From Proteromonas lacertae (Eukaryota): 64,000 bases of DNA. The stretch is taken from assembly GCA_002245135.1 (NCBI GenBank), contig NGBS01000612.1, positions 1 through 64,000 of the forward strand, written 5' to 3'. The position numbers and the translations under genes are program-made. Below, piece after piece: positions 9,936-64,000 of the stretch (position 1 is its first letter; each line of letters begins with the position of its first letter). A model generated the notes under the pieces. It searched no databases and was not told where the DNA came from. It was given only the letters and a program-made list of their open reading frames with translations.

Positions 9936-12900
9936 TTATTTATTGCCAAAATATATGGCTAATAACAACGATAGTATTGTTGTTAACATTAATACTTTAT
10001 TCACTGTTGGATTAGTAAAGAAAGAAGATTCAATATTTCCATTTCTACTTGAGCTGGGACTTGCTTCTGTAGATGAAGAATATATAGATTTTTCTTCTTT
10101 CTTTTCTTTTACACTTTCTCTACTTGGATGTAAATATTCTGTTAAAAGTTTTCCTACTATATCAACATTTGGTTTTTTCAATAAATTCCAATGATTACTA
10201 TTCTTAATTTCTACTATTGGATATTGATTATTCCATTTATAAGGTTTCATATTTTCCAATTCAAAATGATCTGGTATAACATTGAATATTGGAATATTAC
10301 ATGATTCTAATGATGTTAGCTTATGTTTCTGCAATACTGATAATGAATGACTGAAATTTATTACACTTTCATATAATTCTTTTGTATCAATTCCTTTACT
10401 AATAATATTTTGCTTTATTAAATTTTCAATAACACCTTCAAATTTAGATTTTAATGTTTTTCTATTGTATACTTCACTATCTAGTTTCAATTGTTTATTT
10501 GTTGATAATTCTATACTCTTTATTAAAGCACCTAATGCACCATCATCACTATTGAATTTATCTGTCAACATATCAGGAACAACCCAATCTAATAATATCA
10601 ACTTTTCTACTTTAATATTGTATTTGTTTGACAATAATAATGATAATTCATAACCTACACAGCCTCCAAATGACCAGCCACCAACAATTATATTCTTCAC
10701 AGATTTTGGAGTGATTATATTCATTATTTCTTTGGCATATATTTCACATAGTTCTTCTATTGAATCATATTTTACTTCCATATTCTTTAATTCATAGAAT
10801 GGATAATTATTACCTATTGATTTTGATAATTCTTTATATAAGAAATCTCCTCTTCCAGCACCTTGTACGAAGAACATAGCTGTATCTTGGGACTTTGATA
10901 CATCTATTGGGACAATTTCTTTTATACAAGAAACTGGCTTAGTATCTTTCTTTTCTACTTTTGCTACTGTTGGTGTAGTAGTAGTAGTTGTTTTCACTGA
11001 CTTTTTGTTATTTAATTTCACTTTTGTAAGTAAATATTTTACTAATTTTATTAATGTGCTATTCTCTGATAATGCATCTGGTTCTATAATAACATTTAAT
11101 TCATCTTTAATAATATTTCTTAATTCCATAACCATTAAACTATCTAAACCCATTTCAGACAATTCACTATCATTATCAAGACTTTGTGTTGATGGTAATC
11201 CTAACAATTTCTTTATTCTTTCATTCAAATTATTTATTAGCATTTCATTTCTTTGTTCAGATGGTGTTTCTTGTAATAAATCTATTAATTTCTTTTCTGA
11301 ACCATTTCCACCACTTGATTGTTTCTTTGGTTGTACTTTTTCTAATAATGGTAATGTATCTGTTGATATTAAATCTAAATAAGGTTTTAAGTATGATATT
11401 GCTACATTTGACATTACATTTTTCAATGACCAATTTAATAATGTCATTCCTGTATTGGGGGGTATTTTATAACCTTCGTTTATATTAATCTTTGAAGCCA
11501 TACCTATATCTTTCCAAGCACCCCAATTGATTGTTAATGATGGTAAATTATGTCTTTGTCTATATATTGTTAAGTTATCTAAGAACGAATTTGCTGCTGC
11601 ATAATTACATTGATTAATATTTCCTATTACAGAAGTTATAGAAGAAAACATTACAAATAAATCAATCGGAAGATCCTTTGTTGATTCATGTAAGTTCCAT
11701 GCTCCTAATATCTTTGACTGCATTACACTTGTGAATCTTGTCCAATTCAAATTCATTAAATTATCATCATCTAATACACCTGCTAAATGGAATATTCCTT
11801 TAATATCTTTATTCTTATATTTATTAATAAGATTTGACACATCATTCATATTTGATACATCACATTGTTCATAGGTTATTATATTATAATAATTTGATAT
11901 AAATTCTTGTATCTTTTGGTTAGATGGAGATCTTCCAAGTATTACTACATTCTTTGCACCATTATCAATTAAATATTTTGTTACTTCCATACCAATACCA
12001 CCTGATCCACCACTGATAATATAAGCACCATTTTCTTTTATTGTTCTATTATATGGTTTATTATTTCTAATTACAATCTTTCCTTTATGTTTTGCTTGTG
12101 ACATGAATCTAAATGAATCAATTACATTTCTTCTTTCAAATAAATGTAATGGTAATGGATGAATTGAACCATTTATTATATCATTGTTTATTATATTGAA
12201 CATTTCAGCTATTACTTCTGGTTGTGTTTTTGCTACATTCATTAAATCAAATGATTTGTATTTTATATCTGGACGTTTCTCTTTCATTTGTTCTTCTGTA
12301 TAAATACCAACTTTTCCAATTTCAATAAACCTTCCATTTGTACCAGTTACTTCGATTGATTTTTCAATGAAATCTCCTGCTAAACTATTCAATACAATAT
12401 CAACACCTTTACCATTTGTTAATTCTTTAATCTTATCAGCAAATTCTAATGTTCTACTATTTAATGCAACATTAACACCATTTGATTTAGCTAAGTTTCT
12501 CTTTTCATCTGTACTTGCTGTACCATATATATAAGCACCTATTTTATGAGCTAATTGAGTAGCTGCAATACCAACACCACCACCTGCTGCATGTATTAAT
12601 ACTTTATCATTTGGTTGGATATTGGCTATATGACATAAACCATAATAAGCAGTTAAGAATGTAACTGGAATAGAAGCAGCTTCTTCATATGATATATTAT
12701 TTGGCTTCTTTACTATTAATAATTCATTAGATAATGCATAATTACTGAAACTTTGCATGATTAAACCATAAACTGAATCACCAACTTTAATATTCTTCAC
12801 ATTTGGACCTATTGCTGTAACTAAGCCACTTCCTTCTAAACCATAGAAATCATTCTTATCAGGATACATATTTAACGCATCCATTACATCTCTGAAGTTA

Positions 12901-15900
12901 AGACCTGTTGCTACAATTTGTATTTCTACTTCATTATCTTTTGGTTCTGTTCTTGGAATTGATTTCCAGTATAAATTATTGAGAATACCTTTTTGTGTTA
13001 TTGTCAAATATTCATTTTCTACATTATTTTGTAAGTTAACTGGTAATTTTTCTAATCTTGGAATATATCTATTATTATTACGAATTGCTACCATTGTTTC
13101 ATTATTTGAATTAATTATTTCTTCAATCATTATTATTATATCTTTATCATTATGATTTAATGATAAATCAATTACATGACATGGTATTTCTGGATGTTCA
13201 AGCACCAAACACTTTGCTATACCTGTAATTGGACTAACTGAAAGATTTGGAATATCAGTTGGTAAAACATTATAACCATTTTGTGTTATTATATAAATTG
13301 GAATATGAATATTACTTTGAATAAGTGTTTGTATATTTAATACAAATTCTTGTACTGATGTGAATGAATTCATTGGCTGTTTTACATCAAATTCGGTATT
13401 ACTGAATATATATATTAATGATGTTTCATCATTAATAGTATTATTATTAATTGATTCTATTATTTGATTGGATAGAATAATTGTTGATTTTTTATCAAGT
13501 GTTGACAATTGTGACTGTATTTGTTCTACTGTTTCATTATTGTCATTTGCTGATATTATTACATATGATGATGTACTGTTATTATTATCATTTGATGAAC
13601 TGTCTAATTGTTGTTGACTCCATTCAATATCAGCTGCATCTGGTAAATTCGTTGGAACAATTAATGAATGAATTAATGAGTTTGATACTGGTTTGAGGCA
13701 TAAGTTGTGTAATTCAATAATTACTTCACCTCTTTCATTGATAAGTTCACCATTACAATAGTAATTATTCTTTGATTCTTTACTTAAATGAACTACAGCA
13801 TACAATTGCGAGAAATTCATATAATTAAGATTTAATACTAATGATTCTATTGAGGAAGGTAATGCTAATTGTTTGGTATATGGTTCAATTACTAATGACA
13901 TTAATTCAATTATAGAATCAATATAAACTGGATATATAGTGTATTTACCTGCATTATTATCATTGGTTAATCTAATTTCACTAATAACGGTATTACTATC
14001 TTTATTACTTCTTAATATATCATTTAATAATTGGAAGTTTGATCCAAATTTAATTCCTGTTTCTGCCATTTTGGTGTAAAAATCTGTTGATGACATTACA
14101 CATTGTGAATCATTGATTACATTGTTAATATCTACTATTTGCGGTTGATTATCTACATTATCAATTTCTACATTTCCTTTTGATCTGAGATTCCATGAGT
14201 TGTTTGATGAGTATAATGAGATTGTAAATTCATTTCCATCATTTAATAATTCAAATATATGACTTTCATCTTTATCAAATACAACTGGTGTATAATAATT
14301 CAAATTAGTTATTGTTATTGATTTCTGGGGTGTTAATTGTGTATAAACTGTATCAAATACCATACTTACATCAAACACAAATGGCATTACAACTACATCA
14401 TATACTACATGATCTTTTAATAATGGTAAATTCTTTACATTCATAATTGTATTAAATACAGTTGTATTCTGAGGTATTAATGATGTGTTTAATTTTCCAG
14501 TAATTAATGGAGATTCATGTGGAATTAGGTTTGATTCTACTGTTTGTATTAATCCACCTTTACCTGATATATCTCTACCTTGTTTCATTCTTTCTGCCAT
14601 ATATTCTACTTTCTCAAATGCATAAGTTGGTAATAACACTTTCTTTCTATTAAATCCTTGTTCAATACTCTTCCATTTTAAAGTAACACCATTTTCGTAT
14701 AATACACAAATACTGTGTAATAAGTCTTTCCAATTATCTGATCCTCGTTTTATACTACTTACATTGAGTGATTTATTATCTGGAATAATTCTACTTGACA
14801 TTCCTAATAATACTGGATGTGGACCACATTCTAAGAATATATCAAACTTTAACGAATCTAATGTTTCAATTGATTGAGTGAATTGAACTGGATTTCGCAA
14901 ATGTTCGACCCAGTAATCAGCGTTACTCATCTCAGTCTTTACTATTTTACCACTTACATTACTAATTATTTGAATGTATGGTTCATTATATTCAATCTCA
15001 TTTGCTACTTTTCTAAATTCTTCTAAGATTGGATTCATCATTGAACTGTGGAAACCATGACTTACTTCTAATCGACTAAATCGAATATTATCTTTCTTCA
15101 ATTCATTCTCAAGTTTTTCAATCTCACTTATTAAACCACTTACTACATTCAGTTTTGGACCATTATAACATCCTATCTCTATACCATTATATTTATTTAT
15201 ATATTCTAACACTTTTTCACTTTCCATAAATACAGCTAACATTCCTCCTTTTCCATGTTCTAAACTACTCATCAATTTACCTCTGGCTGATATCAATTTC
15301 AATCCATCTTCTAAACTCATTATTCCACTTACTACTCCAGCTACATATTCACCTATACTATGACCTAATACACATGAAGCTTCGATTCCAAAACTTGACC
15401 ACATCTTATATAAACTATATTCCATACTGAATAAACAGGGTTGAGTGTATTTTGTATCATTCACTAATTCTTTATTTTCTTCATTATATAATACTTCTAA
15501 TAGATTTGGAGATAAATACGAGGATAATATTCTATTACATTCATCCATATTTTCTTTGAATATTGGTTGAGATTCATATAATTCTTTACCCATATTGAAA
15601 TATTGAGAACCTTGACCTGTAAACATTACTGCTACTGTTTGATGTGGCTCATTACCTAATTTCTTTGAACTACTTTGAATGGCTTTTAGTTGAGACAATG
15701 CATCTTCTTTTGATTCTACTGTACAACATATTCTATATTTGAAGTGTTGTCTACCAATACAACTTGTGTAACAGATATCTTCTATTCTATCATTTGTATT
15801 TTCAATGTAAGTAATATATCTATCAATCAATGCATGTAAACCAGATTCACTCTTTGAGGATATACACAAATCATTACATTTACGAGGTATTTCATCTTCT

Positions 15901-18900
15901 TTTACTTCTGGAGCTACATAATTTTCAACTACCATATGAACATTACTTCCACCAAAACCAAAGGAACTTACACCAGCTATTAAATGACCACTTTCATCTT
16001 CCCATTTCATCTTTTCTAATGGAATCACAGCAGGTATTGTATCTATATTTATCATTGGATTTAGTTTATGGAAATGACATTGAGGAGGTATTGTTTTATT
16101 CTTCATCATCATTATTACTTTCGTTAAACCACTTATACCAGCACTTCCTTCTAAATGACCTATACTGGCTTTTACTGAACCTAATACTAATGGATGATCT
16201 TTACTTCGACCATTTCCTAATACACTTCCTGCTGCTTGAACTTCGATTGGATCTCCTAAGGATGTACCTGTTCCATGAGCTTCTAAATAACTTACTTCAC
16301 TTGGTTTTACATTTCCCATCTTTAAGGCATCACGAATTACCATTTGTTGAGATGGACCATTTGGAGCTGTCAAACTGTTGCTTCTACCATCTTGATTAGT
16401 TGCACTTCCACGAATTATTGCTTGAATATTATCTCCATCTTTTATAGCATCACTTAATCTCTTTAATACTACTACTGAACTACCTTCACCTCGACAGAAT
16501 CCATCAGCTGCTTCATCGAATGTTGCACATCTTCCATTTGGACTTAACATCTTTGCTTTACTGAAATTAACATAAAGATCTGGAGCTAATAACAAATGAG
16601 CACCTCCAGCAACAGCAGCTGTACATTCTCCATTTCTAATGGCTTGACAAGCTAAATGAACAGCAAGCAAAGCAGATGAGCAAGCAGTATCAACAGTAAA
16701 TGCTGGACCTTTAAAACCATATGTATATGAAATACGACCTGCAGCTACACTATCAGCAACACCAGTTCCTGTATAACCAATAATACCTGTTAAATCATTT
16801 GTTTTACTTCCAAGTAATGAATAATCACCAGCACAAATACCTAAGAATGTTCCAATCTTTGCACCTAACCAACTATCTGGTGGAATACCTGCTGTTTCTA
16901 AAGCTTCCCAAGTTACTTCTAATAACATTCTCTGTTGAGGATCCATATGTTCAGCTTCTTTAGGAGAAATACCAAAGAACTTTGCATCAAATTCTTCTAC
17001 ATTAACATTCTTCAAGAAACCGCCACGTTTAGTAAATGCTTTACCAGGTTCATCTTTATCTGCACTGTATATAAGACTATGATCCCATCTATCAGCTGGA
17101 ACATCACTTGTTAAATCTTTACCTGTACTTAATAAATCCCAGAATTCATCAGGAGTATTACCACCACCAGGCATTCTACAACTCATACCTACAATTGCTA
17201 TTGGCTCATTATGACTTAATGCAACTTCAGCTTCTTCTTCTTTATCACCTTCTTCATTGAGTTGGAAGATATCATTCATTATATACTCTGATAATGCATC
17301 TATTGTTGGATAATCGAATAATAAAGATCCTGATAATTCTTGCCCAATCATTTCTGATATATAATTTCTTAATTCAACTGACATTAATGAATCTAAACCA
17401 AGTTCACTCAATGGACGATGTGTATCAATAAAACTCATATCATCTATACCCATAACACTTACTACAGCTTGTTTCAATGAATCACTGATTATAGCTTGAC
17501 GTTTTTCAACTGGTACTTGTTTCACTTTCTTATATAATGCACTATCATTAGCTACTGATGCTTTATTGGATGATTTCTTTGTTGATTTTTGTAAATGCGC
17601 AAATGATTCATATAATGGCGTTATTTTAATACCTGGTCTATTTAGATATTTAGACCATTCTAATGGACATACGATTATTTGTGATAAACCACTTTCTATT
17701 GATTCGCTAAGCAATTGATTAGCATATGTTGGATCTATTAAATTCAATCCCATAGATTCGAATGGTTCTTTTGCTAGATTTGCTGCCATACCAACTGATG
17801 ACCATGGTCCCCAGTTTATTACATTACTACATAGATTATTTGTATGACGATAGTAAGATAAACTATCTAAAAACGCATTACCACAAGCATAATTACTTTG
17901 ACCCACATTTCCAATCACCGATGTTGCACTACTGAATAATACAAACATGTTCAATTTATTATGATTTAAACTTTCTTTATGTAAATTCCAACTTCCTATT
18001 ATCTTAGGATTCATTACATTCTCAAATTCTTCAAATTTCAAATCTTTTATTAATCCATCATTGATTATTCCAGCACAATGAATTATTCCAAATATTTCAT
18101 GATTAGAACTTAACTCTTTAAATACTTTATGAACATCTTCTTCATTTCCTATATCACATTTACCACGAATTATTTCTACTCCTTTTTCTTCCATTTCTTT
18201 TACACTACTTTCAATACGATTATTACTTCCATGTCTTCCAATTAAACAAATATGTTTTCCACCATTCTTTATTAACCATTTCGCAGTTAATAAACCTAAA
18301 CCACCATATCCACCTGTTATTACATATAATCCTTCTGGTGATATTTTCAATGGATTATTTCCACGTTTTGCTTTCTGTATTCTATCAACATATCTATTAC
18401 TATCATTACCTCTATACACTACTTCTCTTTCATCACTTCCACTTTCAATTTCTTTTCGAATTGTATCTATTGATACATTTTCATCAACATCTATTATTGT
18501 ACAATTTACATTTGGTATTTCTAAAGCAATTACTCTTGCAAAACCCAATAATGATGAATGATTTAAGTTTATAATATTTGTTTCATCTTTAGCATAATTA
18601 GCATTCTTTGTTACGATGTACAATCTAGCTTTAATACTGTATTTAATTAACGTTTGTGATAATAAATGTAATGCTTTGACTTGATTCATTAATACATTAT
18701 ATTCATATTCATTAGTATTATCTAATAATGGCCACATGTATAATATTGTTGTAATATCTTTGCTATTTTCAAATACCTTTTGATAATCTTCAATTTCATT
18801 ATATCTAATTGTATATTCATTATTATTATCAGATGATTGATAATTATCTCCTCTCTTTACTGTTATTATTTCTGATACATTCTTTAATTCATTACCTAAT

Positions 18901-21900
18901 TTTTCATCAGTGAATAACAAACACTTTGTAATTGGTTGTGATTGTTGTTGATTATCTAATTCTTTCTTTATAAATTGATTCATATAGTAATAATCATTAA
19001 GATTCTCCTTCAATGACATTGATAATATTTCTTTACTAGCTTTCTTCAACATAAATCCTTGAGCTTCTGCTATTATTGCTCCATTTCCATCTATTAATTT
19101 CAATTCACCATTCAATGTATCTTTTGACAAATCAGAACCTTCTGCTATCTTTGAATAACAATATAATTGAACAAATGGTGGTATTTTTTCATATAATAAA
19201 AATCTCTTCATTCCAACTGGTAAATATGTAACACTATCTTTTGATACAAACTTTGACATTATTGATACAATAATCTGAATACAACAATCGAAATAAACAG
19301 GATACATCAAATATGGATCTGTTGTTGACTTTGGCTCCATCTTTAATTTACATAATGCTTCATTATCATTCTTATAAATTGTTTCTACTAATTGGAATAA
19401 TGGTCCTAATGAATAACTATTCTTCCACATATAATCATAGAATTGTTTCAATGTTACTACATCAGTTAATCTCTTCATTATATTTTCTGGTGTATCGCAT
19501 ACTCCTGCGACAAAGTTACTTGTATTATTTAACACTTTACCCATTGCATTAATCATCCATGAGTTCTCTTTATTAATATCACCACTCTTATAACTGTATA
19601 ATTTCCAATCCATTCTATTATCATCAACTGGTGATAAGTGTAATTGTATTGGTTTGGATGGTATTTCTTCTGTTAATACTAAAGCTGCTGGTATTTGAAC
19701 ATCTTCTAAAACACGAGGGAAGTTATGATACAAATCATAAGATGCTTCTAATATTGTACTTATATCAAATACAGCTGGAACAATACATAAATCATTAATA
19801 ACATGATCTAATAACACTGGTAATGCTTTTGTACTGAAATTGGAATTAAATATAACATCTTGTGCAAATGGAGATTTGATTCTTTGACCACACAATATAT
19901 TTGTTTGTGATAATGTCATTGCACTTGAACTATTTCCACTACCACTAGCACCAAGTGTAATTTGTCTAGCTACATTACTCTGACCATTTTCTAATGCACC
20001 AATCCAATAATGTCTTCTTTGATATGGATATGTTGGTAATATAACTTTATGACATTCAAAACCTTCATCAATTCCATTGAAGTTTACAGAATAACCGATT
20101 GTGTATAACTGTGATAATGAGTTGAATAAATTCTTCCAATTACTACCTGTTTTATCTATTGACTTTATCCATGTCTTATTCTCAATAATTCTACCTGCCA
20201 TTCCTAATAATACTGGATGTGGACCACATTCTAAATAATACTGATATTTCTTTCCTACAAATTCCATCGATTGTGTGAATTGAACTGGATTTCGCAAGTG
20301 TTCTACCCAGTAATCAGCATTTCCCATTGTATCTCTATCTGCTAATGAACCTCTTAAGTTTGATAATATTGGTACTTGTGGAGGATTGTATTTTATTTCA
20401 TTGGCTACTTTTCGAAATTCTTCTAAGATTGGATTCATCATTGAACTGTGGAAACCATGACTTACTTCTAATCGACTAAATCGAATATTATCTTTCTTCA
20501 ATTCATTCTCAAGTTTTTCAATCTCACTTATTAAACCACTTACTACATTCAGTTTGGGACCATTATAACATCCTATCTCTATACCATTATATTTATTTAT
20601 ATATTCTAACACTTTTTCACTTTCTAAAAATACAGCTAACATTCCTCCTTTTCCATGTTCTAAACTACTCATCAATTTACCTCGAGCACTTATCAACTTC
20701 AATCCATCTTCTAAACTCATTATTCCACTTACTACTCCAGCTACATATTCACCTATACTATGACCTAATACACATGATGCTTCGATTCCAAAACTTGACC
20801 ACATCTTGTATAAACTATATTCCATACTGAATAAACAGGGTTGAGTGTATTTTGTATCATTCACCAATTCTTTATTTTCTTCATTATATAATACTTCTAA
20901 TAGATTTGGAGATAAATACGAGGATAATATTCTATTACATTCATCCATATTTTCTTTGAATATTGGTTGAGATTCATATAATTCTTTACCCATATTGAAA
21001 TATTGAGATCCTTGACCTGTAAACATTACTACCAATTCTGGTTGTTTTGTAGATTTCACTTCATTGTATATAATATTTGGAGATTTCTTACCTTGTAAGA
21101 AATCATTCAACTGATCTTGTAATTGTTTAACATTTTGTGTAGTTATTGCTAATCTGTGATTGTAACTAGTTCTACCTGTATTTGCTGTATGACAAACATC
21201 TTTAATATTGACATTACTATTATCTTGTAAGTATTGTATATATTTATGAACCAATTCAATTAGAGCTTCATTTGATTTTGCACTTAATGTGAATATATTA
21301 TCATTTCTCTTACTTAGTGATTGTGAATTCTGTATAACTGGTGCTTCTTCAACTATAACATGAACATTTGTACCACTAAAACCAAATGAACTTACAGCAC
21401 CAATATGTGAATGACCTTGTGAAGTTCTCCAATCAATTGTTTCTTTTGGAACTATTAAATGATTTGCTGATAATGAAATATGTGGATTTTCTTTGACTAA
21501 ATTCAAATGAGCTGGAATCTTTTGATGTGACAAAGACAATATCAATTTGATTAAACCACTTATGCCAGCTGCACCTTCCAAATGTCCAATATTTGTCTTT
21601 ACTGAACCTAAATATAATCCATCTTGTGGATTTCTTCCTTCTTTCATTACACTACATAATGCTTCTACTTCTATTGGATCTCCTAAAGATGTGCCTGTTC
21701 CATGAGCTTCAATATAACTTATATCACTAGCTTTTACATTTGCATCTCTTAAAGCACTTCGAATTACTTTCTGTTGGGATGGACCATTTGGAGCTGTTAA
21801 ACCACTACTTCGACCATCTTGATTTACCGCACTTCCACGAATTATTCCCAATATATTATCATTATCTTTCATTGCATCACTTAATCTCTTTAATACAATT

Positions 21901-51900: not shown

Positions 51901-54900
51901 AGTCGTTATCAACCATTAGATATGGGAATTATTAACAAAATAAAAAGCAATTATAAAACTGAAATTTTAAAGAAATGTGTAGAAAATATTGAAAACTTTG
52001 AATTAATAAAGAATATTCAAATTGAAAACAGTAAAGGAAAAGGTGGTATAGCTTTATGTAAGCAACCGAATATAGCAGATGCTATGTATTATTCTACCAA
52101 AGTATTTTTTGGTCTTAAAAAAACAACAGTTATTAAATGTTGGTTGAAATCTTCATTACCATCTGAAGAACAAATAAAAGAATTAAATTCCATATTACAA
52201 TCAGAAAATTGTAATATGAATGTTGATGATGATGAAGAAAGTCAATGCGAATTAAGCCAAATAATTGGTAAAGTAAATGATATTATTATAGAAGATGGAA
52301 ATACAAATTCATTTATAAATGCAACTTCTCTTTTTAGTACAAAATCTATAAGTGAGTTGTACCCATTTTATAGCTTTGAAAATGAAGATGGTTTTAAAGT
52401 AGAAGTTGTTGATAATGTAATTCAAGAAAATAGTAAAGAAGATTCAAATAATGCAACCTGCAAAACCAAAAGAAGAATTGATAATATGTCTAATGAAATA
52501 AATAAAACTAAAAAAAGCAAGATTAACAACATCTTCGAATAATCTTTAAAACACTTATAAAATCTCTTTGTATATCAATTATTTTTAGTGTATTTAGTAT
52601 ATTTATTCAAATGTATAAAATAGTAAATTATAATCATTTTGTTTCAACATTTTATTTGATTATAATTCATTTTTCAAATAAACAAGAAGCAAAAAATATA
52701 ACTCGAATTTTTGTCCGTTTCTTGAAAATGAAGGGGTTTGAGTTATACAGGTTTGACTGTAATACCAATAATGCAATATTGGGGAATACTTTTTCAATAT
52801 TTTCTATACCAATTACTTTTGGTTGAATTACTTTGTTATATGATTCATAAGACATGTTATTAATTAATTTATCATCTAACACACCAGCAGCATGAATAAC
52901 ACAATACACATTTAGATTCATTGATTTTAATTCCTGTTCAAGTCTATACAAATCATCAATATTAGTAACATCACTTTGTTTGCATAATATTTGACAATTA
53001 CCTGATTTTGATAATTCATTTACTTTATCTTGTAAATTAGAAGGTAATCCATGTCTTCCTAATATTACTATATTCTTTACATTCATTCCTATTAATGTTT
53101 CTACTAACGACATTCCTATACCTCCATATCCACCTGTTATAACGTATGTATCTTGTTGAGATGTTGATATTGGAGTTGTTGATGGTTTTAATAATGATTT
53201 ATTGACGCTTTCTATGAATAATTTATTATCTCTTATTGCTGATATTGTATTTGGATTCTTTGTAGTAATTATTGTATTGAATAAACTTTCATTATTTCTA
53301 TTTATATCAATAATTCTACATGTAGTTTGATGATTTTCTAAGGCAAATACTTTCATTATTCCAATATAATATGATTGAGTTAAATCAATTTCATTGTTAT
53401 TCTCATTTACATAATATCCATTTCTTGTTACTAATGTCAATGTAAACTGTTGATTGGATGATGACAACAATCTCAACATTGTAATGAACTTATATGAATC
53501 TTCAATTGATGATTTTGATGGTGAATAATACACTACATTTTCAATTGTTCCATATTCACTTAAGAATTGTTTGAAGTCATTATCTTCTAATTTCATACCA
53601 TATTTATTATCATCATGATAATAATGATCAGATTCATTTAAGAAACTACACTCTAATGAATTAATTCCTTCATATGAGTTTATTACTAATGTCTTCTTTG
53701 AATTTAATTCTTCCAATTCTTCTATTTCTTTTTCACTCCATTGAATTTGGTAAATATTTGAACTACTTACTTTGTGTGAACGTAATAATGCATTTCTATC
53801 AACTTCTTGTAATTTAAAGTTCTTTGAATAAGCGATAATTTCATTATTACCATTTAATAAATATAAATCAGCTAATACACTCTTTCTATCATTTGTTATT
53901 ACTTTTGAATAACAGTATAATTGTGTAGAATCTTCTACTTTTCGTAATAATGTAAATTCATCCAATGAAACTGGTAGTAATGTCTTAAACTCATCTTTTG
54001 AAACAGATAAACCAACAGAAGCAATAACAGTCTGAATACAACAATCAAACAATATAGGATACATATAATAGGCATTAGGTATTTCTTGAATGTTAATTTC
54101 ACCAATTGATTCATTATTATCACTATTAACATGGATATTTGATAATAATTGGAAATGAGGTCCAAATTCATAACCTCTTTCATTCAATTGCGAATAGAAA
54201 TCATTTTGTTGATATTCTCTACTAGAACATCTTGATATTATGGATTGTATATTATCAATATTCTCAGTACTATTATTATTATTATCTTCAATAACACCAT
54301 AACAATGAGTGATCCAACTATCTTTAGAATGAATATCACCTTCTACATAACTTGCTAACTCAAACATTACATTACCATTTGAATTGCTTGTTGCTAACTG
54401 AATTGTTGCTGAATTATCTAAGAATAAAGCTGATGTTAAATTGACATTGGATAATCTGATACTTTGTGACTTATTCATAAATAAACCAGCTTCAGCTACT
54501 AATTCTAAATAATAAACAGCTGGTAATATCAAACAATTGTTCATCATATGATCTTTCAATTCTTCAAACTTTGATGTATTTATTGTTGAAACAAATAAAG
54601 ATTCAGTCAATAATGGTGAACTGAAACAATAACCTGATAAATTAGATGAATATGAACAGATTGAATCGTCAGTTAATAAGTTACGATGAGTTGTATCAAT
54701 CCAACATCTTATTCTATCAAATGGATAATTCTCTAATGGAACTCTGTGATATAATAAATTATTAGAAGTATTAAATGGTAAATCATCTATTCCACTCGTG
54801 TATAATAATCCTACACTTCGTGTTATAGAACTTTGATCAGATGAACCTCTTACTAGTGATGGTACATAGATAATTGATGGATCATTTAAGATATATTTAC

Positions 54901-57900
54901 TCATTCCTATTAATACTGCATTTGGACCACATTCTAAATAAATCTTATTAGAATATAATTTATCACTACATTCTATTGATTGAGTAAATTGAACTGGATT
55001 TCGCAAGTGTTCGACCCAGTAATCAGCATTACTCATCTCATTTTCTTTTATTAAACTTCCACTTACATTACTGATTATATCTTTTACTGCTTTTCCATAT
55101 TTAATCTCATTTGCCACTTTTCGAAATTCTTCTAAGATTGGATTCATCATTGAACTGTGGAAACCATGACTTACTTCTAATCGCTTATATCCAACCCATC
55201 ACTCTTTAGTTCATTCTCAAGTTTTTCAATCTCACTTATTAAACCACTTACTACATTCAGTTTTGGACCATTATAACATCCTATCTCTATACCATTATAT
55301 TTATTTATATATTCTAACACTTTTTCACTTTCCTAAAATACACATAACATTCCTCCTTTTCCATGTTCTAAACTACTCATCAATTTACCTCGAACACTTA
55401 TCAACTTCAATCCATCTTCTAAACTCATTATTCCACTTACTACTCCAGCTACATATTCACCTATACTATGACCTAATACACATGAAGCTTCGATTCCAAA
55501 ACTTGACCACATCTTATATAAACTATATTCCATACTGAATAAACAGGGTTGAGTGTATTTTGTATCATTCAACAATTCTTTATTTTCTTCATTATATAAT
55601 ACTTCTAATAGATTTGGAGATAAATATGAGGATAATATTTCATTACATTCATCTAATGTATCAGCAAATACTGAATTTGTATGATATAATTCCTTCGCCA
55701 TATTGAAATATTGAGATCCTTGACCTGTAAACATAACTACAATTTGAGGTTTTTTATTTGTTTCACAAACACCATATGTTACTCTCTTATCTTCTTTATT
55801 ATTTAAATAATTATCCAAAGCTTCTTTAACATCTTCTTTTGTTTGACATGAAACACTTAAACGATAATTGAAATGATTTCTACCATTTGATAATGTATAA
55901 CAAATGTCAGCAAGTGAATATGGAATGGATGTAATATTCTGAGAATATAACTTTGCTGATTCTACTAAACTGTATTGAGATTTAGCTGATAATTCAAATT
56001 CAAAATATTTATTCGTTTCATCAATTGTAACATCAGAATGTTTTGGTGCTTCTTCTACAATAACATGAGCATTTGTTCCACCAAAACCAAATGAACTAAT
56101 ACCACAAATCTTCTTTGAATAACTATCAGGCCAATTCATACCATTTGATGGAATAACAATACCTGATTGATCTATATGTAATAAACTATTAAGATGATTG
56201 AAATGTAAATGTGATGGTATGTAATTATTATTCATTGATAATAAGATCTTTATTAAACCAGCTACACCAGCAGCAGCTTCTAAATGTCCAATATTCGTTT
56301 TGACTGAACCAACTACAAGAGGATGGTTATTGTTATGACCTTTATATACATTCTGTAATGCATTTACTTCTATTGGATCTCCTAATTTTGTACCAGTACC
56401 ATGAGCTTCTATATAACTAACTTCAGAAGGAGAAACACCAGCATTGGATAATGCATTTTGGATCACTCTTTGTTGAGATGGACCATTTGGAGCAGTTAAA
56501 CCACTACTTCGACCATCTTGATTTACCGCACTTCCACGAATTATTCCCAATATATTATCATTATCTTTCATTGCATCACTTAATCTCTTTAATACAATTA
56601 TACCACATCCTTCACCTCTTACATAACCATTAGCAGAAGCATCAAATGTTTTACATTTTCCATCAGGAGCTAACATTCCAGCCTTTGAGAAATTTATCAT
56701 AGTTTCAGGTGAACTAATACAATTCACACCACCAGCTACAGCCATATTACATTCATTCAATCTCAAGCTTTGACAAGCTAAATGAATACTTACTAATGAT
56801 GATGAACAAGCTGTATCCACAGCAATAGAAGGACCTTGGAATCCATATAAATATGAAATTCTACCAACAGCTGTAGAGAAATAACTTCCAGTTGCAAAAT
56901 AACCATCATTCTTAGCAGAATCATCATACTTCATTTGTAATAATTGATAATCAGTTGTAGTTAAACCACAAAATACACCAACAGGTGAAGCTGTTAATTT
57001 AGCTGGTGCATAACCTGCATTTTCTAACGCTTCCCATACAATTTCTAATAGTAATCTTTGTTGAGGATCCATTGAAGCAGCTTCTCTTGGAGATATACCA
57101 AAGAATTGACAATCAAATTTATCAATTCCTGTATCTATTAAACCAGCAGACATTGTTTTCATTGTATTTGGTTTTTCACCAGTCGAATCATAATAATTTT
57201 CTATATCCCATCTTTCTTTTGGTATTACAGTGATACAATCTTTTCCTTGTTTCAATATATTCCAATATTCTTCTACAGAATTAGCGCCACCTGGGAATCT
57301 ACATCCCATACCTACAATTGCTATTGGTTCATTACTAGAAACACTTGATTTTGATAATGACAATGAAGCTGAAGGAGTAGATTGAGTTTCATTGGATAAA
57401 TCAATATTCTTTGATATAAATTCTACCATATCATCAACTGTTGGATAATCAAATGTAAATGTTGTTGATAGGTTCAATCCAGTTTTTGCTGATAATGTAT
57501 TTCTTAATTCAGTTGCCATTAATGAATCTAATCCAATATCTCTTAATGGACGATTATGAATAATTTCTTGTGTTGAATTCAATCCAAGAATACTTTGTAA
57601 TGATGTTAATACAATATCTTTAACTGAAGTTGGTTTTATTGACTTTGACATAGATGAACTACCACCAAATGAACTTCTTAATATATCACTAAATATTGAA
57701 TTCTTTAATAATTCTGGATAGTTCTTTCTTAATATATTAGAATCAAACTTGTTAATTATTACATTTGATAAGTATGTTTTTAATGCAGATTCTAAATTGT
57801 TTAATGCATCATTAGTTGGTATAAGAGTGACACCATATGATTTCCATTTACTACTACTAGTTTTAGTTGCCATTCCTACTTCTTTCCAAGGTCCCCAGTT

Positions 57901-60900
57901 TATTGCTAAACATGGAATACCATTCTCATTACAAATACTGTCTAAATAGGAATTAGCTGATGCATAATTAGCTTGACCACCATTACATGTTATTGATGTA
58001 ATTGATGAAAAACATACGAAGAAATCTAATGATTTTACATTAACTATTGACAATAAACTTCTAGCACCTTGAATTTTGGGTACATAAACTGATTTTATAG
58101 CTTCCCAATCCATATTTGCAAGAATAGAATCTTTAACAATACCAGCAGCATGGAAAACACCATTAATAGTTAAATTCTTTTCGTTATTATGTTGTTTAAT
58201 TGAATTAACACAGTTCTTATCTGCAATATCACCTTTTATACATTCAAATTTATATCCATTACTTTCTAAATCACTAACAAATGATTTCATTGATTCTGGT
58301 AAGCCATTTCTACCTAATAATATGAATGTAATATTCTTAGCTAATGAACAACACCATTTAATTAATTCTTGAGCAATTTGGCCATATCCACCTGTTAATA
58401 AATAACAGCCATTATCTTTAACACTTTGTCTTTCCTTTCTTTGATTCTTATTACTTTCTCTTGTTATAACAATCTTACCGATGTGTTTACCTGAAGCCAT
58501 AACTCTGAATGCATCTTTAGCATGATTGAAACAATATGGAACAACGGGTAATGGAGCATAAGTATCATTTCCAACATTATTAGCTATTGAATTTAATAAA
58601 GAATTACCTAAATTATGATCATTTTCAAACACATCTAATAAATCAAAGTGATAATATTTCACACCTGGTTTATTCTTATTTACATCTTCTTCTGTCCAAA
58701 TTCCAGTTTTACCAATTTCAACAAATGTACCAGTATTCTTAATAATAGAGAATGATTTGGGTATGAAATCTTTTGCTAATGAGTTTAATACAAAATCAAC
58801 ACCTTCTGGAGCAATTTTTGGTATTTCATCTGCAAATGATAATGTTCTTGAATCATATATATGATTTACACCTATTGATTGTAAGAATGAATGTTTTCCA
58901 ACACTTGCAGTACCAAATATCTCACATCCAAGTGATTTAGCAATTTGTACAGCACAGAATCCAACACCACCTGCAGCAGCATGAATTAATACTTTATCAC
59001 CTGCTTTACAATGACCTAAATTCACTAATGAATAATAAGCAGTAGCATAAACAACAGGTAAAGCAGCACCATCAATACATTTAACACTTTCAGGTATAAC
59101 AGCTACTGAATAAACTGGAACACAAACATATCTTGAGAATGAATATTTACCAATGCCAAATACTTTATCACCAATATGAACATTTTGTACATTTGAACCT
59201 GTATTTACTACATAACCGCTGAATTCTAAACCAAGTGGACCAGCATCACCAGGATATGTTCCTAATACGTTTAATACATCTCTAAAGTTCAAACCAGAAG
59301 CGAATACTTCTACTTCAATTTCATCAGGTTGTGGCAGTTTTCTATCAACAACTTCTGTAATAATATTCTCAAATGTTCCTTTATTAATTACATTCAATCG
59401 ATCATTAACTGTTGATTCTTCTTGTAATGGTAAAGATTTAATCACTGGTACAAATCTTGAACCATAATGAAGTGCGACTTCTGAATCATCATTAGAATTA
59501 CATAATTCATTGAATAACCACTGTGATTCTAATTGATAACTCATTGGAGAACTACCACCATTAATATCAATTAATGTACATTTCATTGAAGAATATTCGG
59601 TTTTAATACATCTACCAAAACCCCATAATGTTGATTCATTGGAATTAATTGATAATTCATATCCAATTTGTTGTGTTTTTCTTGTAACAATTGCTAATCT
59701 TCCTTTGAAATTATTGGATATTGTTTGTACAATGGTTAATAATGATCCTGTACCATTGATATTTTGTATTTCTAAATCATTATCATTTTCATTAATATCT
59801 AAAGGCCAGGCATAAACAATCAAAGAGTTTGGCTTGACTACTTCTCTTGTTATATCTTCTAATTGTTTTTTATCATTTCCAACAACTTTAGAATTTGGTA
59901 TTTTATCATCATGAGATATGATTATTACTTCAGTTGAATTCTTTTGATATGATTTTACTAATTCTTCAGTAACACCAGCATGATCAGCATATATAACTAC
60001 ATTAGGATATATTGTCATTGTATTTGATTCACTTTGTTTTTCTACCCATTGTAATGTATTTAACAATGAAGAAGTAATTGATGATGATGATGATGTAATT
60101 CCTAATAACTTATGAAATATTTCAGTATTTATAACAGAGTACTTTATTTCATTAATATATAATATCAATTCATTCTTTTCATTATATAAAGTAATACTTG
60201 ATGTTAAACCTTCATTTGATGATAATTTCTTACAATAACACCACAATCCATTCAATTCAACATTTGAATTATACACAACATTATTAACAGATACTGGAAC
60301 ATAGCATTGATTGGATTTTAACAATAGAATAGGTAATTGAATACAAGCATCAAGTACTGATGGATTCAATGATAAATAATTATCACTATTACCATTACTC
60401 TTATTATCAATATCAGCAACAATTGTATTTTCACCACATAATGCTTTCATCACTTTCTGATATTCATTTCCATATTGATAACCATTTTCTACAAAGAATT
60501 GATATATTTCTGATTGTGAATATACAATTTGTTGACATTGATTTACTGCTTCTTCTTTAGATGATATTGTTGAAATATTAATATCATTATTAGTATAAAC
60601 ACCTTTACAATTCTTTGACCATACTTGATTGTTGATATTATTAGATATTTCAAAGTTCTTATCTTGAGATAATTCTAATTGTAAAGACCAAGGTTTTACA
60701 TTTTCAAGTGATGGAATTGGTAAAGCAGATTGTATTTCCATTGATTCTAATTTTGACACATCTGATTTTGATGTTAATTTATCACATTCTAAAGCTAATG
60801 AAATGAAATAAGCAGCTGGAACAATTGTAACATCATCAATCTGATGATCAGTTATGTAATTGTAAATACTATTACTTTCAATTGAATATATTGTTCCTTG

Positions 60901-63900
60901 GAATAGTGATGACGATATTTGTTTAATTCCTTGTGTTTGATAAGTTGTATGACTATATCTATTTGATGTAAACCAACATGATTGTGACTGATATGGATAA
61001 CTTGGAATATGAACTAATGCTAAATGTGAAGCAGTTGTAAACAGATTTCCAATTGATTGAAATATTATGTAAATATAATGTAGAAATAGATTGTGAAATT
61101 GAGTATAAATTGGATTTGTTATTGGATAATGATGGTACATAGATAATTGATGGATCATTTAAGATATATTTACTCATTCCTATTAATACTGCATTTGGAC
61201 CACATTCTAAATAAATCTTATTAGAATATAATTTATCACTACATTCTATTGATTGAGTAAATTGAACTGGATTTCGCAAGTGTTCGACCCAGTAATCAGC
61301 GTTACTCATCTCATTTTCTTTTATTAAACTTCCACTTACATTACTGATTATATCTTTTACTGCTTTTCCATATTTAATCTCATTTGCCACTTTTCGAAAT
61401 TCTTCTAAGATTGGATTCATCATTGAACTGTGGAAACCATGACTTACTTCTAATCGCTTATATCCAACCCATCACTCTTTAGTTCATTCTCAAGTTTTTC
61501 AATCTCACTTATTAAACCACTTACTACATTCAGTTTTGGACCATTATAACATCCTATCTCTATACCATTATATTTATTTATATATTCTAACACTTTTTCA
61601 CTTTCCATAAATACACATAACATTCCTCCTTTTCCATGTTCTAAACTACTCATCAATTTACCTCGAACACTTATCAACTTCAATCCATCTTCTAAACTCA
61701 TTATTCCACTTACTACTCCAGCTACATATTCACCTATACTATGACCTAATACACATGAAGCTTCGATTCCAAAACTTGACCACATCTTATATAAACTATA
61801 TTCCATACTGAATAAACAGGGTTGAGTGTATTTTGTATCATTCACCAATTCTTTATTTTCTTCATTATATAATACTTCTAATAGATTTGGAGATAAATAT
61901 GAGGATAATATTCTATTACATTCATCCATATTTTCTTTGAATATCGGTTGAGATTCATATAATTCTTTACCCATATTGAAATATTGAGATCCTTGACCTG
62001 TAAACATTACTACAATTTCATATCTTTTTAAATCATCACTACTTTGAACATCACACTTTTTATTGCTAATATAAGCTTTCAAATTATTAACTAATTCATT
62101 GACATCATTGTTACATGGAACAGCAATCTTATTTTGATAATTTGATCTTAATCTATTGCTTGTTTGAGCAATTTCAGAAACAGAAACTTCTGGGACATTC
62201 TCAATAAATTGATTCACCATATCATTTAAGGAATTTTGTGAATGAGCTGATAATGTAAATACCATAGGAGTATTTTTACTTTCATCTTCAATTGACTTTG
62301 GAATATTTGTCTTTGGAGGTTCTTCTAAAATAAGATGTGCATTTGTTCCACTAAAACCAAATGAACTAATAGCTGCTCTTTTAACTTCATTATACTTTGG
62401 CCAAGGTACTAATTTAGAATTAACTACAGCTGGAATTGAATCAAGATGAATCAATGGATTGCATTGATGATAATTCAAATGAGGAGGAATTTCATTATAT
62501 TTCATTGCTAATAATACTTTCAATACACCTGCAATACCAGCAGCAGCTTCTAAATGTCCAATATTCGTTTTGACTGAACCAATATAGAGTGGTTGATCCT
62601 TTCTATTTTCATTATAAATATGACTTAAAGCTTCTACTTCTATTGGATCTCCTAATTTTGTACCAGTACCATGAGCTTCTACATATGCTATTGAAGATGA
62701 ATCAATATTTGCATTTTGAAGAGCAGATCTAATAACACTCTCCTGCATTGGACCATTTGGAGCAGTTAAACCACTACTTCGACCATCTTGATTTACCGCA
62801 CTTCCACGAATTATTCCCAATATATTATCATTATCTTTCATTGCATCACTTAATCTCTTTAATACAATTATACCACATCCTTCACCTCTTACATAACCAT
62901 TAGCAGAAGCATCAAATGTTTTACATTTTCCATCAGGAGATAACATTCCTGCTTGTGAAAAGTTGATAGTCATATCTGGAGCTAACATAAGATTAACACC
63001 ACCAGCTAAAGCAGCTTCACATTCACCAGATAACAAGCTTTGACAAGCCATATGAATACTTACTAATGATGATGAACAAGCAGTATCAACAGAAATAGAT
63101 GGACCAGTTAAGCCATAAGCATATGATAATCTACCACTTGCAACACAAGCAGAATTACCAGTTCCAAAATGAGAGGTAATATTATTCAAACCAGCTTCAC
63201 GAGTTTGTAAGATTTGATAATCATGAGTGAAAATACCAATAAATACACCATATTTACTACCATTTAATGAGAATGGTTGATAACCTGCATTTTCTAATGC
63301 TTCATAAGAAACTTCTAATAATAATCTATGTTGAGGATCCATAATATTTGCTTCTTTCTTTGATATACCAAATAATGAATAATCAAATTCATCTACTTTT
63401 TCATTCAGAAAACCACCCCATTTTGTATTCATTTTACCATTACCACCATTTTCATCGTAATATTCATTAGAATCCCATCTTGATAATGGTACTTCCGTTA
63501 TACAGTCTTCACCATTCTTTAATACATTCCAGAAATCTTCTAATGATTTTACATTTCCTGGGAAATGACAACCAGCTCCAATTATAGCAATTGGTTCATT
63601 TCTATTAATAGATTTACTATGAGAAATTTGTTTTGGGATTGATTCTGGTTTGACTATATATTGTTCTAATGTATTCTTCCATAAATAATTACTGACAGCT
63701 TCAATTGTTCCATAATCAAATAAGAATGATGATGATAATTCTAATCCAAATTTCTCAGAGAATATCGCAGTTAATTCTTGACTTAATAAACTATCAACTC
63801 CTAAATCTCTAAATCCAACACTTTGTATATTACCATTCTTCTTTTCTTTACCAACAATTGATAAGAATAATTCTTCCACTTTATCACAAATATATGGAAT

Positions 63901-64000
63901 TCTATTGTTGGAAGAAATTGATTTGATTTTTTCGTATAATTCCATTAACCATGTTGATTTAATATTCATTTCTTCTTCTTTTTCTTCTTCTTCTCTAGAT
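9936..64000 (-). CDS. Giant modular type I polyketide synthase, 5'-truncated by the window: ACP-[KS-AT-DH-ER-KR-ACP]-[KS-AT-DH-KR-ACP]-[KS-AT-KR-ACP]-[KS-AT-DH-ER-KR0-ACP]-[KS-AT0-DH-KR-ACP]-[KS-AT*-KR-ACP]-[KS-AT-DH-ER-KR-ACP]-[KS-AT-DH-KR-ACP]-[KS-AT-DH-ER-KR-ACP]-TE-TM; interrupted as assembled
   Basis: Minus-strand ORFs 61450-63969, 60959-61423, 55333-61158, 52667-55150, 43203-50372, 42899-43243, 28720-42882 and 9936-28553 abut, and every break falls inside a module. All nine KS carry DTACSS / HGTGT / GHLE; ten ACP G(L/M/V/F)DS motifs. The frame is open to the window edge (SREEEEKEEE-MNIK). The natural stop is TAA at 9936-9938. Confidence 0.9.
9948..9995 (-). other. C-terminal hydrophobic helix (putative tail anchor)
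   Basis: VLMLTTILSLLLAIYF followed by GNK-stop, after a Ser-rich polar linker. Confidence 0.7.
10130..10885 (-). other. Terminal thioesterase domain
   Basis: MFFVQGAG, nucleophile motif GGWSFGG, LILLD, C-terminal His in SNHWNLL. Confidence 0.88.
14975..15630. repeat. Near-identical AT-core repeat (about 0.5-0.75 kb); other copies at about 20400-21030, 31650-32175 (mosaic), 42845-43610, 47300-48035, 54980-55640 and 61265-62005
   Basis: Shared DNA strings such as CATTCTCAAGTTTTTCAATCTCACTTATTAAACCACTTACTACATTCAG and TTCCATACTGAATAAACAGGGTTGAGTGTATTTTGTATCATTCA recur in seven AT domains. Confidence 0.93.
15919..16718. repeat. Near-identical ~800-bp duplicate of about 32481-33279 (KS9 / KS6 C-terminal half)
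   Basis: Shared peptide FKGPAFTVDTACSSALLAVH...SNVHMVVENY with nearly identical codons. Confidence 0.9.
17265..22632 (-). other. PKS module 8: KS-AT-DH-KR-ACP
   Basis: DTACSSS, GHSIG / VSHGFHS, DH HVINDLCIVP / YFDCCIQ, KR core matching module 5, ACP GLDSLM. Confidence 0.92.
17783..18342. repeat. Near-perfect ~560-bp duplicate of 34362-34921 (KR8 = KR5 core)
   Basis: Direct reading shows identical sequence apart from at least one synonymous change (CCAGCACAA vs CCGGCACAA). Confidence 0.92.
22770..29103 (-). other. PKS module 7: KS-AT-DH-ER-KR-ACP
   Basis: KS spans a frameshift in a T-run near 28771 (SSLK-GTNAGVFVG). AT GHSIG / VSHAFHS; DH HVLHHVVVVPG / IDSCFQ; ER LIHAAAGGVG; KR TGGFGGIG / GQLNYAAAN; ACP GLDSLM. 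Confidence 0.92.
29250..33771 (-). other. PKS module 6: KS-AT(aberrant)-KR(A-type)-ACP
   Basis: AT motifs FAGYGSQ, GFSIG, VDLAYYS. No DH. KR TGGFGGVA, VWGSNQLAHYSAAN; ACP GFDSLM. Confidence 0.88.
33830..38832 (-). other. PKS module 5: KS-AT(degenerate)-DH-KR-ACP
   Basis: AT relic is shortened and has AVGVAEI where GHSIGEY should be. DH HVINGFTIVP / YFDCCIQ; KR TGGYGGLG, AGIIND, GQSNYACGN; ACP GVDSVL. Confidence 0.88.
38915..45205 (-). other. PKS module 4: KS-AT-DH-ER-KR(degenerate)-ACP
   Basis: DH HILHHTCVVPG / IDSCFQ; ER GLNFRD / LIHSISGGVG; the KR position reads TYIVIGEYNKT with no YAAAN; ACP GMDSLM. Single-base insertions near 43222 and 42904. Confidence 0.88.
45270..49620 (-). other. 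PKS module 3: KS-AT-KR(A-type)-ACP
   Basis: No DH or ER motif between AT and KR. KR TGGLGGIG, HCAGVLYL (no LDD), VWGSTSMSPYSAAN (Trp fingerprint). ACP GMDSIT. Confidence 0.9.
50366..50388 (+). repeat. Left terminal inverted repeat
   Basis: CAGTCAAACCTGTATTATTCGAA, preceded by TA. Confidence 0.93.
50970..52542 (+). CDS. pogo/Tigger/CENP-B-family transposase (HTH-psq-like + CENP-B HTH + DD33D), probably 2 exons, about 513 aa
   Basis: Exon 1 HTH (EICQKYSVKQSTISTWLINK). Exon 2 RERKSKYPELERKLLNW, LHGEA, catalytic FNMDESGL, LVMDNCASH and LPPNCTSRYQPLDMGII, with 33 residues between the 2nd and 3rd Asp. Basic C-terminus. Confidence 0.9.
51151..51181 (+). other. Putative 31-nt intron in the transposase gene
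   Basis: GTAATAATTATCATTAAGTTGTTATAAATAG. By ORF-track coordinates (frames starting 50970 and 51244) a length of 1 mod 3 is needed, and 31 fits. The acceptor is not certain: the printed line at 51181 seems to hold one extra base. Confidence 0.6.
52737..52759 (-). repeat. Right terminal inverted repeat
   Basis: TTTGAGTTATACAGGTTTGACTG, followed by TA. Confidence 0.93.
57400..63598 (-). other. PKS module 1 (in-window numbering): KS-AT-DH-ER-KR-ACP
   Basis: EPIAIIG, DTACSSS, FTGQGSQ, GHSIG, VSHGFHS, DH HQIDDVTIVP / LDACIQ, ER GLNFRD / LIHAAAGGVG, KR TGGYGQI / GQANYASAN, ACP GLDSLM. Frameshifts near 61468 and 61030. Confidence 0.9.
63675..63880 (-). other. ACP domain of the upstream (off-window) module or loading unit
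   Basis: GFRDLGVDSLLSQEL...LSSSFLFDYGTIEAV. Confidence 0.85.

Follow-up and report, generated by a model that had tools for sequence, protein, structure and literature searches.

A probable cis-AT polyketide synthase gene of at least nine modules and 17,200 codons, interrupted by a transposon, in Proteromonas lacertae

The following stretch of DNA was used for the present analysis: positions 1 to 64,000 of contig NGBS01000612.1 (assembly GCA_002245135.1) of Proteromonas lacertae, which we call the window. From 64000 down to 9936 its minus strand encodes domains of a modular type I polyketide synthase (PKS) with acyltransferases inside the modules (cis-AT). We conclude with good confidence that this array is one eukaryotic cis-AT megasynthase gene, predicted to encode at least 17,200 residues. 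Taking all observations together, the explanation that we favour on balance is a single gene that was expanded in place, with a product that a likely membrane-anchored thioesterase would release, and with a transposon-hit copy in the window that is likely inactive. What makes the gene stand out is cis-AT modularity in a stramenopile-type lineage, not its size.

Ketosynthase (KS), acyltransferase (AT), dehydratase (DH), enoylreductase (ER), ketoreductase (KR), acyl carrier protein (ACP) and thioesterase (TE) domains have been assigned across the whole array by Pfam, and in a motif scan they follow one another on the minus strand in modular order without a break. Seven stop-free frames of 6278, 4729, 2407, 1941, 849, 843 and 170 aa span 9936-64000, while the longest frame in 20 composition-matched shuffles was 143 aa; the window is AT-rich, and its GC content is about 24-25% over the initial 10 kb and 25-34% across the PKS. 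Eight breaks were found, namely six one-base shifts, one in-frame TAG and one transposon of 2,394 bp. Reading from 63999 down to 9936 with an X placed at the eight breaks gave a stop-free product of 17,222 aa (about 1.91 MDa), which is open at position 64000 and consists of ACP0, nine cis-AT modules, a TE and a hydrophobic C-terminal tail (Table 1). By features testable in sequence, the gene fits the modular cis-AT type I PKS class: seven of the nine modules have an apparently active AT, unlike the AT-free modules of trans-AT giant PKSs, and a terminal release domain, a TE with GxSxG, is present. The original prediction, a model's note on this DNA, had described 54 kb of uninterrupted PKS, which is correct for the order of domains and incorrect for the reading frame. 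Its estimate of about 17,200 codons after transposon removal agrees with our reading, and domain and frame mapping bears out its statements that each frame break lies inside a module and that the frame still runs open where the window ends.

Table 1. Features located in the window, with positions counted from its first letter.
Feature	Coordinates	Strand	Remarks
Modular cis-AT type I PKS gene	9936..64000	-	5' end beyond window; at least 17,222 codons
ACP0, carrier of upstream loading/extension module outside window	63682..63879	-	PF00550
Module 1 KS-AT-DH-ER-KR-ACP	57331..63597	-	One-base shifts near 61469 (AT) and 61022 (post-AT linker)
Module 2 KS-AT-DH-KR(B-type)-ACP	49620..57330	-	TAG 55333-55335 and one-base shift near 55198 (both AT); transposon within KR
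Module 3 KS-AT-KR(A-type)-ACP	45207..49619	-	Pfam and motif scan
Module 4 KS-AT-DH-ER-KR0-ACP	38833..45206	-	One-base shifts near 43221 and 42904 (AT)
Module 5 KS-AT0-DH-KR-ACP	33772..38832	-	AT0 degenerate, shortened, without GHS
Module 6 KS-AT*-KR(A-type)-ACP	29104..33771	-	AT*: GQG to GYG, GHS to GFS, final catalytic His to Tyr
Module 7 KS-AT(HAFH, not homogenised)-DH-ER-KR-ACP	22632..29103	-	One-base shift near 28769 (KS)
Module 8 KS-AT-DH-KR-ACP	17208..22631	-	Pfam and motif scan
Module 9 KS-AT-DH-ER-KR-ACP	10893..17207	-	Pfam and motif scan
Thioesterase	10092..10892	-	GWSFG serine; candidate Asp and His read from sequence
Predicted C-terminal transmembrane helix (tail anchor)	9948..10004	-	3 residues ahead of stop; Kyte-Doolittle 1.88
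pogo/Tigger-type DNA transposon	50366..52759	+	Terminal inverted repeats, TA duplication, DDE_1; 2,394 bp
Class C GPCR-like gene	2229..9732	+	Tail to tail with PKS, 203 bp gap; error-rate control

Every one of the nine ACP-to-KS junctions can be read through in frame, with 64-93 aa between the ACP serine and the KS start, and the reading ends after the TE and tail at an ordinary DNA-encoded stop at 9936, which is the sole natural stop. The transcript-end motif TGTTTGTT occurs once in the gene and is absent from the ACP-KS linkers, and TGTTGTT occurs seven times in the PKS and in none of these linkers. Because the nine linkers are open, the lone natural stop stands at the end and TGTTTGTT is missing from the linkers, the array is read as one gene, and the original prediction that modules are separated by no spacer or natural stop/start holds. 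Polyadenylation-made stops have been published for Blastocystis ST1 and ST7 (PMC12129017), and several proteins could in principle be made from the array by separate transcripts or by such stops, as in the human Blastocystis subtypes. We consider this very unlikely here, since the linkers are short and keep the frame without a stop, both types of motif match lie outside them, and the PKS and the neighbouring receptor gene have DNA-encoded stops.

That this single gene belongs to a eukaryote, as had been proposed from the letters alone, is most likely, and the grounds are the absence of intergenic gaps, linkers of the intra-chain type, a host-like GC content at third codon positions (0.12-0.14 in the long PKS segments vs 0.17 in the neighbouring receptor gene), the eukaryotic neighbour and an intron-bearing pogo element. 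The host is taken as eukaryotic because the neighbour is class C G-protein-coupled receptor (GPCR)-like and the pogo element has a 31-nt intron. For the Blastocystis/Proteromonas group, 31-nt introns, lineages of 21-27% GC and PKS domains have been reported (PMC3129679, PMC12129017), and in an InterPro supplementary table Proteromonas has 11 entries with a KS domain and 116 of class C GPCR type, compared with 1-4 and 0, respectively, in Blastocystis strains. Such features by themselves make an Opalinata-type gut stramenopile a likely host. Contamination by bacterial DNA, or a contig that is chimeric or wrongly assembled, would fit the bacterial best protein matches and the near-identical AT copies. 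It is nevertheless most improbable, since the codon composition is like that of the flanking eukaryotic gene, a eukaryotic pogo element lies inside the PKS, most of the gene is unique sequence, and the AT-motif pattern had no match in 185,579 prokaryote genomes or in the JGI metagenomes.

The KS domains are mutually 50-64% identical, except KS6/KS9 (89%), and identities among modules are 19-43% for DH domains and 18-44% for ACPs. No near-identical tract is longer than 932 bp, and unique sequence accounts for about 80% of the gene. Because the modules are divergent paralogues and the near-identical tracts are short, the array is not mis-assembled, which the original prediction had named as a possible reason to abandon it; judged by their divergence, the modules are old paralogues. 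The best partners are three modules apart (DH4/DH7 41%, DH5/DH8 43%, ACP4/ACP7 and ACP5/ACP8 44%, KR5/KR8 96%, KS6/KS9 89%). This spacing points to duplication of a three-module unit and then patchy gene conversion, and the PKS has probably grown by duplication of modules at its own locus. In the core of KS6/KS9, 22 differences are synonymous and 6 non-synonymous, so that selection acted until recently.

The homogenised tracts are the AT copies and a few KS and KR tracts. These are comparable with GRINS, repeats of more than 500 bp and more than 80% identity in cis-AT PKS, for which the limits on mean absolute GC skew and TA skew are each above 0.15 (Nivina et al., 2021; PMC8256042). Eleven tracts inside the PKS (586-932 bp) are of the required size. 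Mean absolute GC skew is 0.43-0.55 in the converted AT/KR tracts vs 0.17-0.24 in the unique parts and AT7, and is over the limit in 11 of the 11 tracts, as in GRINS. Unlike GRINS, TA skew is over the limit only in the two KS6/KS9 tracts and amounts to 0.11-0.14 in the other nine; by their sequence, the converted tracts are GRINS-like and not clear members. AT7 (26800-27509, minus strand) is the sole active-looking AT outside the conversion network; its DNA is about 66-70% identical to that of the others, it carries HAFH, and its GC skew is lower.

The transposon in module 2 belongs to the pogo/Tigger type (IS630-Tc1-mariner) by its DDE_1 domain (PF03184, E 2e-27; DD33D spacing read from the sequence), its terminal inverted repeats (25-nt arms, 88% complementary) and the duplicated TA flanking both sides. 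Its transposase of about 513 aa (50970-52542) has a 31-nt GT-AG intron (51151-51181) joining the 5' exon to the long frame, and the look-alikes in Atlas are DDE_1/HTH_Tnp_Tc5 proteins of pogo/CENP-B type, all or 99% eukaryotic. The element sits inside KR2, whose sequence is colinear on either side. It is very probably a real insertion, it looks young and intact from its sequence, and it may be currently active in the genome. The original prediction treated the transposon as removable, which serves for counting codons and underplays a likely inactivating insertion; because it breaks KR2, with ends and transposase intact-looking, this allele probably has no full-length product. Splicing-out of the 2.4-kb element was considered and is unlikely next to a 31-nt intron. 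Blastocystis is reported to be diploid (PMC12129017), and an intact second allele could exist if this organism is diploid as well.

Among the seven small breaks, five are in tracts (AT copies) with 150-nt windows at least 99% identical elsewhere, and tracts of at least 90% identity make up 20% of the gene (enrichment of breaks, binomial p 0.0045). In the AT alignment, three breaks resemble hybrids of sister-copy variants, which are expected where reads from paralogous repeats get merged, and two are the same shortened G-run. The receptor gene was used as a control: its positions 2314-3855 (1.6 kb) show nine one-base shifts against the homologue P0002, each followed by renewed similarity, and the alignment contains no in-frame stop. 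Since the same kind of shift is found there, the assembly has patchy indels. The seven small breaks would be consensus errors, and we regard them as quite probably artefactual. Short introns were rejected as their cause, because the paralogue alignments are one base apart, not about 30, and TAG reassignment was rejected because there is a lone in-frame TAG in about 17,200 codons.

A different account would be a recent pseudogene, that is, a dead locus inactivated by the transposon, in which the small shifts are partly or wholly real decay. It draws on the real-looking transposon in KR2, on two shifts in unique sequence and one common to AT1 and AT2, and on the degenerate KR4 and AT5. We judge it improbable, since frames of 6,276 and 4,711 codons are stop-free, the breaks are concentrated in repeats with three hybrid-patterned, the neighbouring receptor gene has the same shift type, KS6/KS9 show purifying selection, and KR4 and AT5 have decayed with the frame kept.

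The rules by which PKS motifs indicate domain activity are established knowledge, and the product was predicted by applying them to the sequence. All nine KS domains have complete motifs (DTACSS, HGTGT and the K-x-x-IGH His motif), and the serine motif GxDS is present in all ten ACPs. Seven of the nine AT positions carry GHSIG with HGFH or HAFH, AT5 is degenerate, and AT6 is without the catalytic His. HAFH is a malonyl-type motif (PMC9301873), and the seven normal ATs with HGFH or HAFH are predicted to be of malonyl type. KR3 and KR6 have the A-type Trp in modules without DH; LDD or LDD-like motifs mark the remaining active KRs, whose modules include a DH. In KR4 the catalytic Tyr motif is missing and no NADPH motif could be located, and this KR is predicted to be dead. 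KR6 (30000-30330, minus strand) has a 14-residue insertion after the NADPH-binding region, which is absent from the eight other KRs. For ACP0, 16 of the 20 best fetched matches were post-KR ACPs, in a background that held just five ACPs after fatty-acyl ligase.

AT6 matches its sister ATs across most of 185 codons, and its 16-17 amino-acid changes are nearly all in three active-site islands (GQG, GHS and HxFH) within an otherwise converted tract (31621-32206, minus strand). Alignment to CurL places Tyr at the position of the final catalytic His, and Phe before the AT serine, as in the GFS of AT6, was found in none of 690 fetched ATs. The AT of ZmaA has parallel changes at two of the altered sites (GNG, GYS), and ZmaA reportedly uses an ACP-linked extender. 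The GHS island lies centrally in a converted tract, so selection appears to hold AT6 apart from its sisters; were plain malonyl loading at this AT harmless, the island should have been overwritten by conversion. The altered site has escaped gene conversion and would be a natural case of selection resisting homogenisation. Inactive ATs inside cis-AT lines are rare yet known (PMC9301873), and for irumamycin loading by an adjacent AT has been proposed (PMC11672594).

With malonyl loaded by the seven normal ATs, modules 1, 7 and 9 would reduce fully, modules 2 and 8 would leave a double bond, and module 3 would leave a hydroxyl, in a repeating three-module pattern. Modules 4-6 appear non-standard: 4 and 5 may share one cycle (KR4 dead, AT5 degenerate), and AT6 may be kept off or re-purposed with KR6 intact, so that module 6 would receive its extender in trans, possibly one other than malonyl. 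Extension by all nine modules would give a chain of at least 20 carbons, unsaturated at C4, C10 and C16, hydroxylated at C9 and C15 and with a ketone at C13; without extension by modules 5 and 6, the product would be up to four carbons shorter. The predicted product is a partly reduced hydroxy-acyl chain of about C16-C20 or longer, which a likely membrane-anchored TE would release. The best PDB match of the TE is the C-terminal region of a nonribosomal peptide synthetase (NRPS) (4zxh, E 7e-4), and none of 346 fetched PKS proteins has a comparable hydrophobic tail after the TE.

Coccidian oocyst walls contain polyhydroxy and long acyl chains, and PKSs are abundant in coccidia (PMC3760245). Because a tail anchor is predicted and these walls offer an analogy, the product would most likely be a surface or cyst-wall lipid; for such a surface, membrane or cyst-wall role our confidence falls a little short of even. 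A secreted bioactive polyketide (antibacterial or host-directed) in place of a structural lipid is also compatible with a single gene, and we rate it as a tentative alternative. The nearest relatives are natural-product PKSs of cyanobacterial and myxobacterial type, GRINS-like conversion has been linked to product diversification (PMC8256042), and Blastocystis PKS products have been speculated to act on the host (PMC3129679). It fits less well with normal ATs that are all malonyl-type and homogenised, with a strongly reducing pattern, with a window in which Pfam reports neither methyltransferase nor NRPS domains, and with the membrane anchor predicted at the end of the chain.

The best KS matches are 55-62% identical, and the named ones are mostly cyanobacterial. 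CurL is the best match of solved structure (KS-AT, E 6e-214), with 715 bits vs 525 for the next, i.e., 190 bits ahead. A KS tree was constructed by FastTree from 90 rows, which were the nine KS of the window and 81 of 1,112 fetched sequences (the 45 best-scoring and chosen references). In the tree the nine KS cluster together with a weak support of 82, under the mark of 95, and adjoin two further sequences; a transfer from bacteria is likely on this sequence evidence. A search with the C-terminal region among proteins of 3452-10987 aa gave a best identity of 38% among 155 matches and no orthologue, and among shorter proteins identities were at most 39% in the 120 listed of 495 matches. A search of representatives ranked by total score gave long multi-module proteins alone (36-48% identity), close fragments being outside its reach. 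In searches covering proteins up to 10,987 aa, no orthologue of the giant PKS was found.

The receptor gene ends in a DNA-encoded stop, convergent to the PKS. Its Atlas score is 0.96 with broad matches, and the top clusters are commonest in diatoms; it is 66% identical to P0002 over the long frame. The gene is very large, at least 2,500 aa by the homologues P0001 and P0002 (Logan only; clusters of 1 and 9), and its start is maybe nearer position 1. A long extracellular part, seemingly with repeated periplasmic-binding-like domains, is followed by a seven-transmembrane end. The 5' part is dense in one-base shifts, and region 1-2200 shows similar-looking broken frames. An alignment search with the receptor in the JGI metagenomes found no locus.

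Several points weigh against the account given here. That the whole array gives a single mRNA and a single protein is a prediction from the DNA, and the insertion in module 2 likely inactivates this allele, so that a full-length protein is probably not made from it. The breaks at 61022 and 28769 are in unique sequence, and the G-run shift common to AT1 and AT2 could have arisen as a genuine mutation that gene conversion then copied. The TE match to Pfam (PF00975, E 1e-5) scores 26.3 bits, marginally below the cut-off of 26.4, and the 7tm_3 match of the receptor is weak (E 0.07). The KS tree has a support of 82 with rows picked by similarity and without named eukaryotic KS, and does not show the donor. 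The proposed product and role come from motif rules and analogy.

A wider scenario, which we put forward as speculative, is that an anaerobic gut stramenopile acquired a cyanobacterial-type cis-AT module, which would have grown via triplet duplications and continuing GRINS-like conversion into a chain of more than 1.9 MDa, larger with the 5' end and among the largest cis-AT single chains. To this a eukaryotic tail anchor would have been added, a selection-shielded AT6 would take a non-malonyl extender in trans, and an intact allele would make an undescribed membrane or cyst-wall polyketide lipid. If true, a nine-plus-module cis-AT chain of bacterial affinity would represent a separate origin of eukaryotic multimodularity, as eukaryotic giant assembly-line PKSs have so far been mostly trans-AT and algal. 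The tail-anchored TE would point to a membrane-coupled lipid, possibly relevant to cyst survival, and the locus lets gene conversion be observed directly in a eukaryotic PKS, with an active-site island whose resistance to homogenisation is testable. It would also show that long-read errors in repeated AT domains hide giant PKS genes from annotation. This weight is tempered by the larger PKSs already known and by the likely disruption of this allele.

At the level of titles and abstracts, literature searches found no description of a multimodular PKS in Blastocystis or Proteromonas. A PKS orthogroup is listed for Blastocystis, Proteromonas and Cafeteria, and the main text of PMC12129017 has no match to 'polyketide' or 'PKS'. 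The PKS of Blastocystis subtype 7 is similar in being type I with DH, KR and ER, in its suspected horizontal transfer and in its related host group; it differs in having a single, fungal-PKS-like domain set, and no multimodular giant is mentioned in the available part of that report (PMC3129679). Cryptosporidium parvum PKS1 is also a single-chain line of a protist with unknown product, described as seven elongation modules and a terminal unit (PMC10394414), while at least nine modules, a TE and a predicted tail anchor are found here. Coccidian PKSs have been linked to oocyst-wall lipids (PMC3760245). The KS domains here are nearest to bacterial cis-AT systems, whereas apicomplexan KS are described as distinct from bacterial ones, a comparison made by description only.

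Comparison with the largest known systems shows that the original prediction was too strong in placing the product among the largest protein size classes, because PKZILLA-1 of 45,212 aa and the 51-kb mlsA1 have been published. MlsA1, of the Mycobacterium ulcerans mycolactone PKS, is equal in size to the stretch of over 51 kb described here and is likewise a single cis-AT gene with recombination-homogenised domains (PMC2569948). It is bacterial and plasmid-borne, and its like domains are described as all 98.7-100% identical (PMC2569948); the likeness that we claim is limited to domain families. Of the fetched proteins of the CurL (curacin A) and cyanobacterial cis-AT kind, most comprise one or two modules, and methyltransferase or NRPS domains are often among their parts, whereas the nine fused modules here contain neither. 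PKZILLA-1 and -2 of Prymnesium and the chlorophyte OluPKS3 are, like this one, giant single-chain eukaryotic PKSs that automatic annotation fragments, but they are trans-AT, and PKZILLA-1 is 2.6 times longer than 17,222 aa. Algal multimodular PKSs are reported to be almost all without integrated AT, and those of photosynthetic heterokonts to be mostly iterative cis-AT (PMC4661987).

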